Assembly (NCBI GenBank): GCA_963422375.2
Contig: OY729427.2
Coordinates: forward strand, 544,001 to 608,000
Origin: Bryobacterales bacterium
GTDB lineage: Bacteria; Acidobacteriota; Terriglobia; Bryobacterales; UBA6623
Length of the DNA: 64,000 nt
Direction of reading: 5' to 3'
The first letter of the stretch is position 1; every line of letters starts with the position of its first letter. Shown in pieces: positions 34,801 to 40,800 of this stretch. Made by a program: the position numbers.

Positions 34801-37800
34801 GATCAGGGATGCCCGCTGCGCGGGCTGCCGGAAACGGGGTGGCCAGCCTTGGCTGCCAGCGGGTCCGACTGTCGACCGCCCGATATCCAGAGCCGGGACC
34901 GTAGCACCATGCGGGGCCTTCGTCCGAGACTAGGCGCAAGCGTCGGATCGAAAGCGAGTAGAATGCAATCTGTGAGGGTGGCCGGTACGGCCCTGGCGGT
35001 GGCATGTGCGCTGGCCGCATGGGGCCAGAATCCGGAACATCGCTTCTATCCGAGCTACCAGCTGGAGCGACCGGTTGATCGCGTCCTAGCCAAGGCTCAC
35101 CCTAGTGCCGGCGATTGGGTCGGCGAGCGGGACTTCGCCGCGGTCGACGCTCAGCTGAAGAGGATTGCCCGGTCGCTGCTGGCGGATCGGAATTCCTTCA
35201 AGCCCCTCGCAACCGAGACGGAGCGCTTCAGCGAACTAGCCTTGGTCGAGTTCAAGATCCTCTCCACCTCGAGGAACGAAAACCAGCCGCCACTGGTGCG
35301 TTCCGCCGTCCGCATCGAACTGGGAGGCACGGCTGACGATGGCGGGCTGCTGTCGCGCCTCGCCACGGCGCAACTGACCTGGGCGGCGGACGAGGACGGC
35401 CTGGCTCTCCGCGACTTCGCCGTCGGCGACATCCGTGGCGGGCGTTCGAGCGCCTTCGGATTCGCGGAGGTGACGGACCAGGTATTCGGCGGGATCGAGT
35501 CCTTCCGGGAGCAGCTGGTCGCGGGCGTCGATCACTGGCGGGATTCCATCGACGCGGCAGCCGGAGTCACCGTGTACGGCCACCAAGGCCTGTCCCTCGG
35601 GGACTTCGACGGCGACGGACTGGACGACCTCTACGTCAGCCAGCCCGCCGGGCTGCCGAACCGCCTCTACCGCAACAACGGCGACGGGACCTTCTCCGAC
35701 GCCACTCGCCGGGCGGGCCTTGACATTCTCGACGACACTTCCATGTCGCTCTTCGGCGACGTGGACAGCGACGGAGACCAAGACCTGATCCTCGTGGGGC
35801 CGACTCCGCTGCTCTTTCGCAACGCGGGCGATGGGTCGTTCTCGCTGGACGGCAGCGCTGGCTTCGATTTGCCGGAAGAGAAGGCCGCCATGTTCACCGG
35901 AGCGGCGCTGGCGGACTACGACCTAGACGGGGACTTGGATCTTTACGTCTGCGCTTACGATTTCTGGCAGCCCGGGGCCCAGTACGACGCTCCTACGCCC
36001 TACTACGACGCTGTTAACGGTCCGCCGAACCTGCTGTTCCAGAACGACGGACAGGGCAGGTTCGAAGAGGTTGCCGCCCTGGCGGGCCTGCAGCCGACCA
36101 ACAATCGCTTCAGCTTCGCCGCCGCCTGGGCAGACTACGACAGCGACGGCGATCCCGACCTGTACGTGGCGAACGACTTCGGGCGCAACAATCTCTACCG
36201 CAACAACGGAGACGGCACCTTCGTGGAAGCAGCCGGCGAGCTCGGCGTAGAGGATCTTGGCGCGGGCATGTCCGCAGCGTGGGGCGACTATGATAACGAT
36301 GGTGACCTAGACCTGTACACCGCCAACATGTGGTCGTCGGCCGGCCTTCGGATCACGACGAGCCCGCAGTTCGACGCGGTCGCGCCTAGTGCGGCGGTGC
36401 GCGGTGACTTCAAGCGCCACGCGCAGGGCAATTCCCTGTTCCGCAACGACGGAGCACTTGGCTTTCGCGACGTGAGCGACGAGGCCGGGGTGCGCACGGG
36501 GCGCTGGGCCTGGGCGTCCGATTTCGTAGATTTGGACGGGGACGGCCTGCTGGATCTCTTCGTCCAGAACGGCTACATCACCGGCGAGAGCCTAGACGAC
36601 CTTTGAAGCTTCTTCTGGCGGCAGGTCGTGTCGCAATCCCCTCTTGGAGCCGAGGGCTCCAAGAGCTACGCCGAGGGATGGCGAGCGATCAATATCCTGA
36701 TTCGCTCCGACGGGTCTTGGAGCGGCAGGGAGCGCAACCTGTGCTTCCGCAACCGTGGAGACGGCACGTTCGATGACGCGTCCTTCACCAGCGGCCTCGA
36801 TCTGGATGCCGACGGCCGGGCGTTCGTCCCCTTGGACATCGACTCGGACGGGGATCTCGACCTGATCCTCAAGAACCGCAACGGACGCCAGCTGAGGGCG
36901 TTCCGCAACGACATGCGCCCCGGTCACACAAGGCAATTCTCCGTGCGGCTCGAGGGTCGGCGCAGCAACCGCGATGGCGTTGGCGGGAGGGTTTGGATCA
37001 CCACCGATCGACGCACCATGATGCGCGAGATCGCCTCGGGAAGCGGCTACCTGTCGCAGAGATCCCGCCGGGCCCGATTCGCGCTGTCTGAGGCGGAAGC
37101 GGTGCGAGGCGTGCAAGTCCGCTGGCCTCTAGGAGACGTGCAGGAGATCGCGTCTCCGCCGCAAGACGGGCATTTCGCTCTGGTCGAGGGCGATACGGCA
37201 TTCCGGGCGGAGGCTTCTCCGCAGTCGGCAATCGCAGTGCCGGAGCCGGCCCCAAGCTCGGGGCGGCAGGCGAGCCCCGGGGCGTGGCTCCTCGATCCGC
37301 CGCCCGCTCCCGACTTCGAGCTGAGAACCCTTGGCACGGGCGCCTCGGCGCGCCTGTCGGACCACCGGGGAGGCCCGGTATTGCTCAACTTCTGGGCTTC
37401 GTGGTGCCCGCCGTGCCGGACGGAGCTGGCCAGCTTCCAAGACCGAATGGAGGACTTTCGACGGATGGGGGTCGAAGTCGTCGCCGTCTCCCTAGACCAG
37501 CCCGAAACCGCCGAGGCCGCGAAGGATCTGGTGTCGATGCTGGGACTGGACTACAGCGTGCTGCTGGCTGACCCGCAGACGGCCGCAGCTTACAGCGTGC
37601 TGAACGAGCGCCTCTTCGACCGCCGCAGGGCGCTTGCAGTCCCAACGACATTCCTCTTGAACTCCGACGGCCGGATCGTGAAGGCGTATCGCGGCGAAGT
37701 CGATGCCGACGCGGTCATCGCCGACATCCGGGCTGGCAGCGGCGCCGCGCTTCCATTCGCCGGACGCTGGGCCGCGTCCGCGCCGGGCCGGGACTACGAG

Positions 37801-40800
37801 GAACTCGCCGCCGCGTTTGCGGAGCGAGGCCTAGGCGTTGCGGCGAGGTCGATGTTCGCCGAGGCGCTCGCGACCGGCGCCCGCTCGCCGGTCCTCCTGA
37901 ACAATTTCGCCGGCGCCCTGATAACGGACGGCGAAAAGCTGGAAGCGGAGCGGCTCCTGCGCGAAGCGCTGGCCAAGGCACCGGGCCTGACGGACGCAAA
38001 GGTCAACCTAGCGACCCTGCTAGTCGAGCGCGGGGACAGGGCAGAGGCCGTGCGGCTTCTCGAAGCGGCGCTGAACGAGCAGCCGAAGGACGGCCAAGCG
38101 CTCTCCGTTCTCGGAGCCGTCCGGTTCTCGGAGGGCAGGCTGGAGTCCGCGGAGACACTCTTCCGTCGGGCCGTGCAGACTCGTCCGGAGGAGGAGCGGT
38201 TTCGCGCCAACCTCGGAGCGGCGCTCGCGTCCCAAGGACGCTTCGCCGAGGCACTGCAAGAGTACGAGGCGGCAAGGCAACTCGGCGCGGAGAGCGCGGC
38301 CCTGCATACCAACCTAGCCGTGCTCTACATGCAGACGGGCCAACCCGGGAAGGCTCGGGAATACTTCCTGAAAGCGGCCGAGACGGATCCGGACGATCCG
38401 AGCGCACACCTGAACCTCGCTCGTTTCCTCCTCCAAGCGGGCGATGCCAAGCACGCCAAGGATTCGATCCGTCACGCGATGAATCGAGATCCACGAAGCT
38501 CGGCAGCGTTCGCCCTCTTGGCCCAAGCTCTCGCCATGCAAGGGCTAGTCGACCAAGCGCGAGAGGCGGCGGAAGAGGCGCTCCGCCATGATCCGAACTC
38601 GGCTGAGGCTGCTAGGATCATCGATTCGCTCGAGTAGTTGCAGAGTCTCCGCAGTTGCAAGCGACGACCTTGAATCGATCAACTCCGATTCTTGGACATC
38701 TCACTATACTCTGAATTTCTCACTCAGCGAATAACACTCGGAATATCGTCCGATAAGGAGATCGATAAGAAATACATAGATCTCATAATCTACTGAAATA
38801 TATCAGTTCGTTTTCCGTCTTCATATCGCCATTGTCTTGTCCAATACACTCGAAAGAATTCGCGAACTGAAAGTTAGTCATTAACTGTCAAGATCTCAGA
38901 AGAATTCGATTGTCATTTTAGCAAGATAATTCTACAGATTGAATCGACAGTCTATCTGAATTTGTACCGAATAAACGAACTTAGACCCAATTGGATAGGA
39001 TTGCGTAGAACATCGACAAGTCTTGGAGGAAGCGTTTGGCTCCGATCTTCACCCGCCTGACACGGCTACATTCCACTTATATTTGCAGGCATTCAGACGG
39101 TCCTAACGTCAAGGTCCCGGTCAAATCAGTGCCGGGAAATTCACTGGGATATTCGACAAGAGCAAGGAATTCAAGCTTACCTACCTGCGGACAGTTATCT
39201 CGAAGGTGTCGCACCCGTTTGGATGCACATCAACCGAAGACTACCGGACTGGTGACCAGTATTCCTAGCAAGTCCTTAATCATCAAGTCCTTAATCATCA
39301 CGAATGCGTCGATCTTCGTCAACCTTTGAACCAAGACGTTCAGAGAAGGAATGTCTGTGCGCCAGAATCGGTGGCCCTTGTAGACACGTCCATAAAGGCA
39401 ATTGCCCCTAGACGAGGCCATGAGCATGGCTGGCTTCGGCATGTCAAGCACAGTCCCGGAGTCATGGGATAGATCGTCCACGCTCCCCTATCAATCCCAA
39501 GCCCTTCAGTCGCGGTCTGAGGGATCCGGGATCGCAACTGCTCAATCTTCCGGGACGGCCGGAGGGGACCGAGGTACCAGCAGGCAGCGGCAGGCCGGAC
39601 CCGCCGGATCCGGAACAGATCCGCGACGGCATCAAGTCCAGCCCTTGTTGATTCCTGCCGGACTCGCTTGCCACTAGCGGACATCTACGGCCCACCAGAA
39701 CGATTCCTCCCGCGACGTTGCCCAGTGAGACGACCAGAGATCTTCGCCCCCAGTACAGGTGCCAGCACGTGACCCTTCGATCCAACGACCATCATGCCTC
39801 GAGCGGCCCGCTAACGGCCCGTGCCGCACGCCGTAGCATACGAGCAGATGAAGAGCCGGCCCAAGGCCGGGGGCGAGGCGCAGGTCACGGCCGAGAAGGA
39901 GGCCGCGCCCCGGCGCGTGGACTACGACGGGGCCTGCAAGGTCCTCTTCTCCACGGCGCGGATGGTGGTCGACCTGGTGCGCGGCTACGCCAGGGAACTC
40001 GATCTCGACGAGATCGACTACACGACCTTGGAGCCCGCGAGCCCCTCCTACCTCGGCGCGGAGGCCGTCAAGCGCTACGGGGACCTGCTGTGGAAGGTGC
40101 AAACGAAGGGCGGGCGGCCGGTGTACGTCCTCGTGCTGCTGGAGTTCCAGTCGAGCGTGCAGGACTACATGGCGGTGCGCCTGATGACCTACGTGGGCCT
40201 GCTGTACGAGTCGCTGTGCCAGCGGCAGGGGCTCCCCCCCGCTGCCCATCCTGGTGCCGGTGGTGCTGTACTGCGGCCGGAACAGGTGGACGGCCGCGGA
40301 CAGCGTGCGCCCGCTGGTGCTAGCCGAGCCGGCGGCCCTGGCGGGCTTCGTGCCGGGATTCCGCTACATTCTGATCGACGAGCGACGCTGCGAGCTGCTG
40401 GGCCTGGAGCAGCGCAACCTGGTGGACGCGATGATTCGCTGCGGGCGGGCGGCGTCGGCGCCGGCGGCGTCGGAAGAGGTGCTGCGCCTGCAGGAGTGGC
40501 TGCGGGGGGACGCGAACGCCGCGCTGCGGCGGGCCTTCGTGACCTGGCTCGACATCGTGCTGATTCGGCCGCAGTTCCCCGAAGTGAAGCTGAAGGCCGG
40601 AGACGGCCTAGCGGAGGTGGCGAAAGTGCTGGGAAGCTCTATGACTTGGATCGAGCAGGCGGAGACGAAGGGCCGCGCGAAGGGCCGCGAGGAGGCGCTG
40701 AGGGACACGTTCCAGCGAGTGGTCCGAAGCCGGTTCGGGGAACCCTTCGCCGAGGCCGTGGCTTCCCTGAGCCGGCCGTTCGAGTCGGGCGAGGCCTTTT

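Follow-up and report, generated by a model that had tools for sequence, protein, structure and literature searches.

Within the window, a stretch of 64,000 nucleotides from a Bryobacterales bacterium, a single gene at 34963..38637 (+) carries an in-frame UGA at codon 548. Sequence comparison indicates that this codon is very probably decoded as selenocysteine (Sec) by SelB and Sec-tRNA(Sec), signalled by a short in-frame hairpin. The explanation we favour overall, with a probability of roughly 0.55, joins this recoded UGA548 to an exported Sec/CPPC relay.

Reading frame and domain build

Translation of window positions 34963-38637 with TGA read as U yields 1224 residues and a terminal TAG stop, with a single U at residue 548 (36604..36606, +) in the motif DLUSFFWRQVV. 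Under table 11 the gene's frame gives two ORFs, 34849..36606 and 36628..38637, split at the TGA. Contigs covering 36604-36606 from two runs and two studies contain no differing base.

The product is predicted to be an exported protein of 1224 residues, which opens with a signal peptide and small N-terminal domain, continues with a CRTAC1-like FG-GAP propeller and ASPIC/UnbV, and ends, beyond a flexible linker, in a ResA/TlpA-like thioredoxin domain (with CPPC) followed by TPRs (all features lie on the forward strand). Residues 1-22 (34963..35028), ending ALAAWG before Q, are probably a Sec-type signal peptide as read from the sequence, and the N-terminus of one orthologue (L052) is hydrophobic too, resembling that of the window protein. 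The FG-GAP blades occupy residues 185-545 approximately (35515..36597; Pfam FG-GAP_3, 2.2e-43, six stretches) and are beta-rich in the predicted model (pLDDT >90). A helical insert, more blades and ASPIC/UnbV follow the Sec at residues 549-756 (36607..37230), as placed by Pfam, the predicted model and the alignment to CRTAC1 (9etn_A), with the Pfam UnbV_ASPIC match at residues 672-734 (36976-37164). The linker to the thioredoxin domain spans residues 757-769 (37231..37269; pLDDT <50 at model residues 733-738 and 740-745). The ResA/TlpA/DsbE-like thioredoxin-fold domain covers residues 781-914 (37303..37704; Pfam AhpC-TSA 5.9e-25, Redoxin 1.6e-19; PDB ResA 1st9, TlpA 1jfu). Its CPPC active-site motif lies at residues 815-818 (37405..37416), within WCPPC at 814-818; 97% of Sec forms have Cys815, and the figure for Cys818 is the same. 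The remainder, from about residue 985 to 1224 (37915..38634), is a TPR superhelix, with matches to Pfam TPR families and helical repeats in the model. Orthologues of 1180-1290 aa share this build.

The predicted model (pLDDT 92.3, pTM 0.88) attaches the thioredoxin domain via a low-confidence linker. One of its helices (524-530 in model numbering, residues 548-554 of the protein) begins with the Sec, and propeller blades continue after the site. The genome-wide survey's note had described one gene with Sec at residue 548, this same succession of domains, and a Sec at the start of a helix. The first claim is upheld by the 1224-residue frame with its single TGA, the Sec machinery, the hairpin and the conservation of the TGA; the second by Pfam and the model; and the third by the model helix.

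Evidence for recoding of the UGA

The genome encodes a tRNA-Sec (73.9 bits against a cut-off of 47) with anticodon tca, the only tca tRNA among 60 tRNAs, as well as selB (345.6 bits), selA (515.8) and selD (299.7), each above its cut-off. A TGA copy was found in 48 of 77 genomes of the family, all 48 of which have selA, and in none of the seven family genomes that lack selA. Within two genera (g2 and g8), the TGA copy occurs only in the single selA-positive genome. In the phylum sample selA accompanies the TGA in 40 of 43 genomes, the other three having tRNA-Sec and selB above cut-offs, and selA was present in all five genomes tested from other phyla or classes. Two family genomes (G004 and G037) have selA in two pieces, and the former retains the TGA.

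The family search covered 77 genomes of the organism's family and returned 116 rows, 69 with one TGA and 47 with none. The survey's count of 66 best matches with one TGA each holds strictly for the 63 best rows and for 66 of the best 68 overall, and its figure of 10 of 12 genera becomes 9 of 12 at the threshold used. The shared TGA codon that it reported for 32 copies extends to all 67 fetched family copies, and to 53 of 53 copies in a 301-genome phylum sample. A pattern search of genome contigs gave at least 121 matches, and all 121 listed are in-frame homologues with TGA at the same codon. These come from five phyla, among them 42 from Planctomycetota, 23 from Verrucomicrobiota, two from Latescibacterota and one from Eiseniibacteriota, so that the family is not restricted to Acidobacteriota. 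TGA also serves as the true terminal stop in many orthologues.

Downstream of the UGA, the nucleotides 15-31 from its U (36618..36634, +) form a SECIS-like hairpin in a single-sequence fold, with a 6-bp stem and the loop GGUCG. It starts 11 nt after the UGA, the G-U of the loop is invariant, and its pairing is conserved, bearing out the earlier description of an fdhF-like element. The hairpin is complete in 107 of 120 TGA copies versus 4 of 30 TGA-less homologues that retain SFFWRQVV (paired cells, 96.1% versus 61.1%). Paired cells (96.0% versus 88.6%) and the covariation score (0.240 versus 0.101) both exceed those of shuffles, with 0 of 500 shuffles as high in either case; slid registers gave 18-68% paired cells, and RNAalifold recovers the core hairpin unaided. 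Pair 18-28, between the Arg codon's third position and the first position of codon +9, takes five base-pair forms among the 120 TGA copies, GU in 64, CG in 35, AU in 8, GC in 8 and UA in 4, with GA in 1; in the 121 pattern matches listed, where these positions were left free, the counts are GU 41, AU 25, UA 21, CG 19, GC 14 and UU 1. No Rfam family matched the 6-bp hairpin. A second hairpin of 11 bp (36641..36665, +) folds strongly in the window gene; its sequence is unconserved beyond close orthologues, and codons +13 onward vary.

Codons +5 to +9 had been described as frozen. The constraint is real, since Thr-8, Leu-1 and Pro+12 use four codons each in the family copies, but it is not absolute. 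Among the 67 family copies, codon +5 is CGG in 59, CGA in 6 and CGC in 2; +6 is CAG in 54, CAA in 11 and CAC in 2; +7 is GTC in 56 and GTT in 11; +8 is always GTG; and +9 is TCG in 62, CCG in 3 and GCT in 2. Across TGA copies, GTG makes up 117 of 117 Val codons at +8, compared with GTG 12, GTT 7, GTA 3 and GTC 2 in TGA-less ones.

With the window protein as query, 166 matches were found in its own genome, most of them without an internal stop. Of the paralogues noted previously, the second Sec gene has its TGA confirmed at C2 3299313-3299315. The third is indeed decayed; it keeps DLUSFFWRQVV with the TGA, yet has many other stops and frame changes. The fourth does have TGC at the site. However, it falls within a clade that lacks Sec, where its neighbours have Thr, Met, Glu and Asn, and it retains only a remnant of the thioredoxin domain, which rules it out as an ordinary Sec/Cys partner.

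Selenocysteine and the fused thioredoxin domain

Uninterrupted homologues from the protein collection (n = 90) have Asn (38), Ala (19), Ser (17), Glu (9), Gly (6) or Leu (1) at the site of the Sec, and Cys in none, so that replacement of Sec by Cys is almost never seen. TGA-less copies from fetched genomes (n = 30) have Cys (9), Glu (4), Asn, Asp and Ala (3 each), Gly, Ser and Thr (2 each), Gln (1) or Met (1). The variety of residues indicates that the fold itself does not need a redox residue there.

Sec and CxxC occur together in 64 homologues and are both absent from 24, with two Sec forms lacking CxxC and two non-Sec forms having it. Among Sec-less homologues, 11 of 90 from the database and 2 of the 26 fetched retain CxxC. 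In Sec-less long forms the thioredoxin fold is kept (phmmer 1e-11 to 1e-31) and the first Cys of the motif is replaced by Ser, Ala, Pro or Val. A U-x-C motif is seen instead in the two Sec forms that lack a thioredoxin domain. On a FastTree phylogeny with some weak and long branches, the Sec state need change only four times and the CxxC state three; the independent pairs number 3-4, and a sign test was not significant. The link between Sec and the thioredoxin domain, previously a matter of inference, now has co-occurrence across homologues in its favour, albeit from only 3-4 independent events.

We give even odds to the gene product being an exported selenol-thiol redox relay. Sec548, at the N-terminus of its helix, would act as the reactive residue at a redox site outside the cytoplasm, and the substrate that oxidises it would be a peroxide, a sulfoxide or an oxidant of the disulfide type. 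The tethered CPPC domain would then attack the selenenic or selenenylsulfide form to regenerate the selenol, and would itself be re-reduced by a DsbD/CcdA-type membrane reductant. In lineages that lose Sec or its machinery, CxxC would decay and the propeller would be kept for a selenium-independent role.

The Sec could instead work alone or as a ligand, at a metal or metalloid site or as a selenol recycled by a free reductant, with the thioredoxin domain serving another client and the co-occurrence reflecting shared ancestry. We consider this rather unlikely. It is consistent with the few independent transitions and with the Sec-less homologues that keep CxxC, which imply that the domain can have a Sec-independent use, and a selenium-requiring ligand role would equally explain the near absence of Cys. 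However, CxxC has gone while the thioredoxin fold was kept in two separate Sec-less clades, and the two Sec forms that lack a thioredoxin domain have gained U-x-C, which suggests that a resolving thiol is required. Moreover, the Sec forms showed no conserved His/Cys cluster of their own apart from Cys594, which is present in 52% of them.

An improbable reading is that the UGA, with its hairpin, serves chiefly as a translational gate that responds to selenium, giving the full protein with selenium and a 547-residue propeller without it, the chemistry of residue 548 being minor. Almost any residue is accepted at the site in Sec-less homologues, and upstream of the UGA the gene already encodes an almost complete propeller together with a signal peptide. 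However, a gate could be placed anywhere in the linker, whereas the UGA is fixed across five phyla at one codon, the N-terminus of a conserved helix, and Sec accompanies an intact CxxC; the further blades after the site in the model would also leave the truncated product an incomplete fold.

That the UGA is not recoded at all is very hard to credit: gene callers split the gene, this genome does contain one genuinely decayed copy, and allo-tRNAs of Acidobacteria have been proposed as nonsense suppressors (Mukai et al., PMC5389517), but more than 240 copies keep the stop at a single codon, in frame on either side, which is not decay and is unlike the decayed copy, the sole tca tRNA is tRNA-Sec, selA-less genomes have no TGA copies, and TGA is a true stop in many orthologues, all against two adjacent genes, a pseudogene or a suppressor tRNA.

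Comparison with known systems

The hairpin resembles that of E. coli fdhF-type genes, where an element within the ORF directs SelB-dependent recoding of the UGA, in lying directly downstream of the UGA with an 11-nt spacer and in its invariant loop G-U in a GGUC-like context. It differs in its stem of just 6 bp without a bulged U, in a loop G-U one base nearer the UGA, because the loop is 5 nt, and in a protein unrelated to formate dehydrogenase. The propeller and ASPIC/UnbV fold is that of CRTAC1 (Foldseek top match 9etn_A, E 2.4e-20, TM 0.72 on target; sequence matches 3.8e-11 and 1e-11; Pfam domains above cut-offs), but CRTAC1 and most bacterial ASPIC/UnbV FG-GAP proteins are without Sec and without a fused thioredoxin or TPR module.

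The thioredoxin fold with WCxxC is shared with ResA/TlpA/DsbE (best solved relatives ResA, 1.3e-15, and TlpA, 2.7e-10), although the window domain scores below the NCBIfam cut-offs (ResA 75.5 vs 170, TlpA 58.4 vs 230, DsbE 44.7 vs 123). The fused thioredoxin-Msr protein PilB of Neisseria follows the same logic, with a tethered reductant domain adjoining a catalytic domain. In contrast to both, the client presumed here is the Sec of a propeller protein. Thioredoxin-fold selenoproteins with Sec in the motif (Prx-like UxxC; ResA-like WAxxUGC, NF041054) have a homologous AhpC-TSA/ResA-like domain, and the window protein scores weakly against WAxxUGC_long (46.3 bits, far under the cut-off of 300). 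However, its own motif is CPPC with two Cys, and its Sec belongs to a different domain, 267 residues upstream.

The survey's note held the family to be new and named in no list that it could search. It is indeed absent from the selenoprotein catalogues open to searching, in which no exported propeller-thioredoxin family is listed, but Table S9 of Kim et al. 2016 (PLoS One, PMC4807772) flags ASPIC/UnbV FG-GAP selenoprotein candidates in planctomycetes. These four candidates are each annotated as two genes, with a bSECISearch SECIS in three and 'SECIS: no' for one, and their closest NCBI match is an Acidobacteriaceae protein (KBS 89) with Gly at the aligned residue. The domain description and split annotation are the same as here, the Gly matches the Gly/Ala/Ser forms found here, and the planctomycete hosts agree with the Planctomycetota among our listed pattern matches. 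We infer common family membership from this description, the candidates being given by IMG identifiers only. They differ in being a supplementary row only (ASPIC, FG-GAP and UnbV have no occurrence in the main text), with no Sec position, thioredoxin domain or distribution given. Taken together, the data point to a widespread family of exported bacterial proteins with a Sec codon, beyond the searchable catalogues; what is new here is that Sec goes hand in hand with preservation of the CxxC in the fused ResA/TlpA-like domain (64/66 Sec forms).

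Reading frame and conservation of the UGA codon

With TGA read as selenocysteine (Sec, U), window positions 34963-38637 (+) translate into 1224 residues, ending at a stop codon and containing a single U as residue 548, so the genome-wide survey's note was right to describe one frame with one TGA. The codon lies at window 36604-36606 in the context ...ESLDDL-U-SFFWRQVVSQSP..., and translation under Table 11 splits the frame into two same-frame ORFs (34849..36606 and 36628..38637). It was found unchanged, without a differing base, in contigs of two public sequencing runs from two studies (X2 and X4), one of which is possibly the window's own source. 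The other copies that the note had described in this Bryobacterales genome (G000) were recovered as well: a paralogue has its in-frame TGA at C2 3299313-3299315, in a decayed copy DLUSFFWRQVV survives, TGA included, amid numerous other stops in all frames, and a fourth paralogue carries TGC at the Sec site. The query had 166 matches in G000, mainly FG-GAP/ASPIC or TPR paralogues, which amounts to a very large expansion.

Inspection of the neighbourhood showed the gene to be apparently monocistronic. The first gene upstream, on the opposite strand, has weak similarity to polysaccharide lyases; beyond it, two genes from the selenoprotein gene, is a second FG-GAP/ASPIC gene, which is Sec-less (window 31037-32779, -). 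Just downstream is a YhgA-like (Transposase_31) gene (window 39821-40873, +), the other downstream neighbour being a TonB-dependent-type barrel gene. No functional clue was obtained from these neighbouring genes.

Residues 448-780 were searched against 77 genomes of the window's family. Exactly one TGA was present in the best 63 matches and in 66 of the best 68; over the whole search, 69 of 116 matches had one TGA and 47 had none. The TGA occupies the same aligned codon in all 67 family copies fetched. A sample of 301 genomes from the phylum gave 54 TGA matches outside G000, the 54th of which, in G125, was left out of the fetch; the remaining 53, from 43 genomes and 17 family codes, again carry the TGA at this codon (53/53). 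Moreover, when one genome per species was scanned for an exact pattern, at least 121 stretches matched, and every one of the 121 listed is an in-frame homologue, so that the in-frame UGA is conserved at one codon in all three sets. Among the pattern matches listed, 51 are from Acidobacteriota, 42 from Planctomycetota, 23 from Verrucomicrobiota, 2 from Latescibacterota and 1 from Eiseniibacteriota, with 2 unlabelled. Because these fall in several phyla beyond Acidobacteriota, the family is much wider than the note had it, reaching five phyla among the matches listed. Three unpublished genomes (G125, G228, G100) enter only the phylum-sample tallies of TGA matches and selA, and no claim is based on them.

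The hairpin and the selenocysteine machinery

In a single-sequence fold, nucleotides 15-20, counted from the U of UGA, pair with nucleotides 26-31 in a 6-bp stem closed by the loop G21-G22-U23-C24-G25. RNAalifold recovered the four inner pairs unaided from 108 distinct 48-nt segments. In this alignment 96.0% of cells were paired, against 88.6% in column shuffles, and none of the 500 shuffles was as high; the covariation score was 0.240 against 0.101, again reached by none of 500. Slid registers gave 18-68% paired cells. The best control for the hairpin is provided by TGA-less homologues with the identical peptide SFFWRQVV. The stem is complete, with all six pairs, in 107/120 TGA copies and in just 4/30 of these TGA-less homologues. 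Val+8 (the eighth codon after the UGA) is always GTG where TGA copies encode Val there (117/117); in TGA-less copies the counts are GTG 12, GTT 7, GTA 3 and GTC 2. Pair 18-28 joins the synonymous third base of Arg+5 to the first base of codon +9, where a change exchanges Ser, Pro, Ala and Thr. Five pair types occur here in TGA copies (GU 64, CG 35, AU 8, GC 8, UA 4, with GA once), and the pattern matches listed, for which these bases had been left free, have GU 41, AU 25, UA 21, CG 19, GC 14 and UU 1. Within the loop G22-U23 is invariant and the flanking positions 21 and 24 co-vary: in family copies CAA always goes with GTT (11/11), and the matches listed show GC 84, CG 15, AU 13, CC 8 and CU 1. 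A conserved stem-loop with a G/U-bearing apical loop is therefore present directly downstream of the UGA. A search of window 36500-36800 against Rfam with E up to 10 found no SECIS family and three chance-level matches.

Two further observations concern this stretch. A second hairpin of 11 bp (window 36641-36665) is strong in the window's gene, its sequence being conserved only among close orthologues. Summed contig depth over window 36594-36641 (about 40 nt) rose several-fold to more than 100-fold in all four runs compared; in run X2 it went from 98.5 to 1137.7, and contigs break at this block. The block, UGA plus hairpin, is near letter-identical in paralogues and in other organisms of the sequencing-run data.

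G000 encodes tRNA-Sec (73.9 bits, cut-off 47; ARAGORN calls it tRNA-SeC, anticodon tca) together with SelB, SelA and SelD, whose genes scored 345.6, 515.8 and 299.7 bits respectively, each over its cut-off. The idea that a suppressor allo-tRNA reads the UGA was rejected, since the single tca tRNA among the 60 of this genome is tRNA-Sec. Two tRNA-Sec-like matches of 90-92 nt (C2:901744-901835 and C1:1009761-1009850) scored 46.7 bits, just below the cut-off of 47, and are probably long-arm tRNAs, as ARAGORN called no second tca tRNA. The selD match (C1:1374433-1375347, model positions 7-310) sits within a 779-aa open frame, which may mean that the SelD of G000 is part of a larger fusion protein with another domain.

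TGA copies and selA co-occur. Within the family selA was found in 70 of 77 genomes, among them each of the 48 that carry a TGA copy; none of the seven selA-less genomes has one. In two genera, g2 and g8, selA is confined to a single genome (G004 and G027 respectively) and so are the TGA copies. Two genomes have selA in two pieces, which may mean that the Sec trait is being lost or that the assembly is in error: in the best copy of G037 the Sec site reads ATG (Met), and G004 retains the TGA, which counts against a strict selA-TGA rule. In the phylum sample selA was present in 40 of the 43 TGA-bearing genomes, and the other three (G306, G157, G331) have tRNA-Sec and selB over the cut-offs. All five genomes tested from other phyla or classes contain selA. 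From these sequence comparisons we put the probability that UGA548 is decoded as selenocysteine, by SelB-type recoding, at roughly 0.93.

Domain architecture and the association of Sec with CxxC

What looks from its sequence like a Sec-type signal peptide is followed by an N-terminal domain (window 35035-35460, residues 25-165) that has no Pfam match and that the structural model shows, with high confidence, as a long helix lying on four long strands. Pfam identified FG-GAP_3 in six stretches (2.2e-43, 147.1 bits, cut-off 26.9), UnbV_ASPIC at residues 672-734 (49.7 bits, cut-off 23.4) and AhpC-TSA/Redoxin at residues 781-914 (88 and 70.6 bits), as well as many TPR families. An AlphaFold2 model of residues 25-1224, built on a 38-row alignment, had a pLDDT of 92.3 and a pTM of 0.88, with a linker of pLDDT <50 between the ASPIC and thioredoxin domains. 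Sec548 is the first residue of a predicted helix (model 524-530). The predicted fold resembles a solved CRTAC1 structure, the top Foldseek match being murine CRTAC1 (9etn_A; E 2.4e-20, TM 0.72 on the target, 635 aligned columns). The thioredoxin fold carries a CxxC active site, CPPC at 815-818 within WCPPC (814-818), and resembles ResA (1.3e-15) and TlpA in the PDB. Scores fall below the NCBIfam subfamily cut-offs (ResA 75.5 vs 170, TlpA 58.4 vs 230, DsbE 44.7 vs 123.15), and the domain is therefore a relative of ResA/TlpA/DsbE and not a member of these subfamilies. Nothing exceeded a cut-off in the NCBIfam scan, which holds no selenoprotein model for this protein family.

We compared 92 near-full-length homologues, 66 of them Sec forms (30 being own-genus orthologues) and 26 Sec-less, scoring CxxC 200-330 residues downstream of the site. 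CxxC was present in 64 Sec forms and missing from 2; it was present in 2 Sec-less forms and missing from 24. The thioredoxin fold is still recognisable in the Sec-less long forms (1e-11 to 1e-31), the first motif Cys having become Ser, Ala, Pro or Val. Sec forms of reduced length (915-1018 residues) retain the propeller, ASPIC and thioredoxin domains without TPRs. Two Sec forms lack a thioredoxin domain; both contain D-G-U-[S/T]-C, that is, a U-x-C motif. These copies (L189 in G169 and L196 in G091) are divergent, end near residue 817 and are off consensus in the hairpin region; the matched region holds a second TGA in one and a TAG in the other. Cys594 (NLCFRN, window 36742-36744), a possible additional resolving thiol, is confined to the Sec forms, 52% of which carry it.

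Against a strict link of Sec to CxxC, 11 of 90 uninterrupted database homologues retain CxxC, the site itself being occupied by Ser, Glu, Gly, Leu or Asn. On a FastTree phylogeny (570 columns, site column dropped, root not inferred) the Sec state needs four changes and the CxxC state three, and there are only 3-4 independent pairs, for which a sign test was not significant; we therefore keep the association as a pattern and not as a statistic. Sec-less clades fall inside a paraphyletic Sec grade, and the state with both Sec and CxxC is therefore probably ancestral. Nine of the 30 TGA-less copies fetched have Cys at the Sec site, and all nine belong to the derived clade that includes the fourth paralogue; no such Cys was found among the 90 database homologues. 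This clade has a remnant thioredoxin domain and adjoins Thr, Met, Glu and Asn forms in the tree.

Previous reports, possible mechanism and known systems

The genome-wide survey's note had presented a new selenoprotein family. The family is indeed missing from the catalogues searched, but in Table S9 of Kim et al. 2016 (PMC4807772) ASPIC/UnbV FG-GAP selenoprotein candidates are already given, with Gly at the aligned residue of an Acidobacteriaceae homologue, and novelty is limited accordingly; the main text of that paper is silent on them. Compared by description only, those candidates agree with the present data in domain names, two-gene annotation and a Gly-bearing acidobacterial homologue. 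Term searches of the text available for the 87-family table of Zhang et al. 2022 (PMC9312934), the GOS study (PMC2398784) and SelCysML (PMC13745706) did not find the family named, and none of the nine new families of deep-Sep (PMC12013277) is named FG-GAP or ASPIC in the part available. The terms FG-GAP, ASPIC, CRTAC, VCBS and propeller are absent from the searchable supplement text of BSepDB (PMC13326102), whose family list (Table S2) lies outside that text. A literature search for selenoproteins or selenocysteine with FG-GAP, ASPIC, UnbV or CRTAC1 gave nothing relevant among the matches listed. The family is thus real, widespread and uncatalogued in the catalogues searched, yet not unreported.

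In the protein collection the best full-length proteins of the same architecture are 48-53% identical and annotated as 'FG-GAP-like repeat-containing protein' or 'TPR repeat protein/peroxiredoxin'. Own-genus copies, 66-76% identical over the region searched in genomes, were not found there as one protein. Gene callers cut such genes in two, leaving hundreds of genomes with two false ORFs per selenoprotein. Moreover, screens for Sec/Cys pairs would tend to miss the family because Cys homologues are nearly absent.

The product is predicted to be large and exported, its Sec lying outside the thioredoxin motif, and it has a built-in candidate reductant. Sec548 could act as a redox-active selenol at the N-terminus of its helix and would be regenerated by the tethered CPPC domain; such a redox relay is plausible, and we give it even odds. 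Sec is lost to non-redox residues and not to Cys, which is an unusual pattern. With these features the family is a testable system for why selenium rather than sulfur is used outside the cytoplasm. A more speculative reading, which we consider rather unlikely, is that of an ancient "selenium-or-nothing" exported redox enzyme, in which a propeller selenol works with its own tethered thioredoxin domain and Cys is no substitute. Were it true, lineages giving up selenium would drop the whole redox module without a switch to Cys, and an ancestral Sec and CxxC state would be common to Acidobacteriota, Planctomycetota, Verrucomicrobiota, Latescibacterota and Eiseniibacteriota. The family would then be among the most widespread uncatalogued selenoprotein families, and selenium supply would be tied to the extracytoplasmic chemistry of soil and marine bacteria.

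Escherichia coli fdhF requires a short stem-loop with an exposed G-U 11 nt past its UGA, and the spacer between UGA and hairpin is also 11 nt here. The protein lies outside the WAxxUGC family (NF041054), scoring 46.3 against a cut-off of 300. In UxxC and WAxxUGC selenoproteins Sec is inside the thioredoxin motif, whereas this protein has CPPC as its motif, with Sec 267 residues upstream of it. Analogues for the proposed relay are provided by fused thioredoxin-Msr proteins and by TlpA-dependent periplasmic peroxidases.
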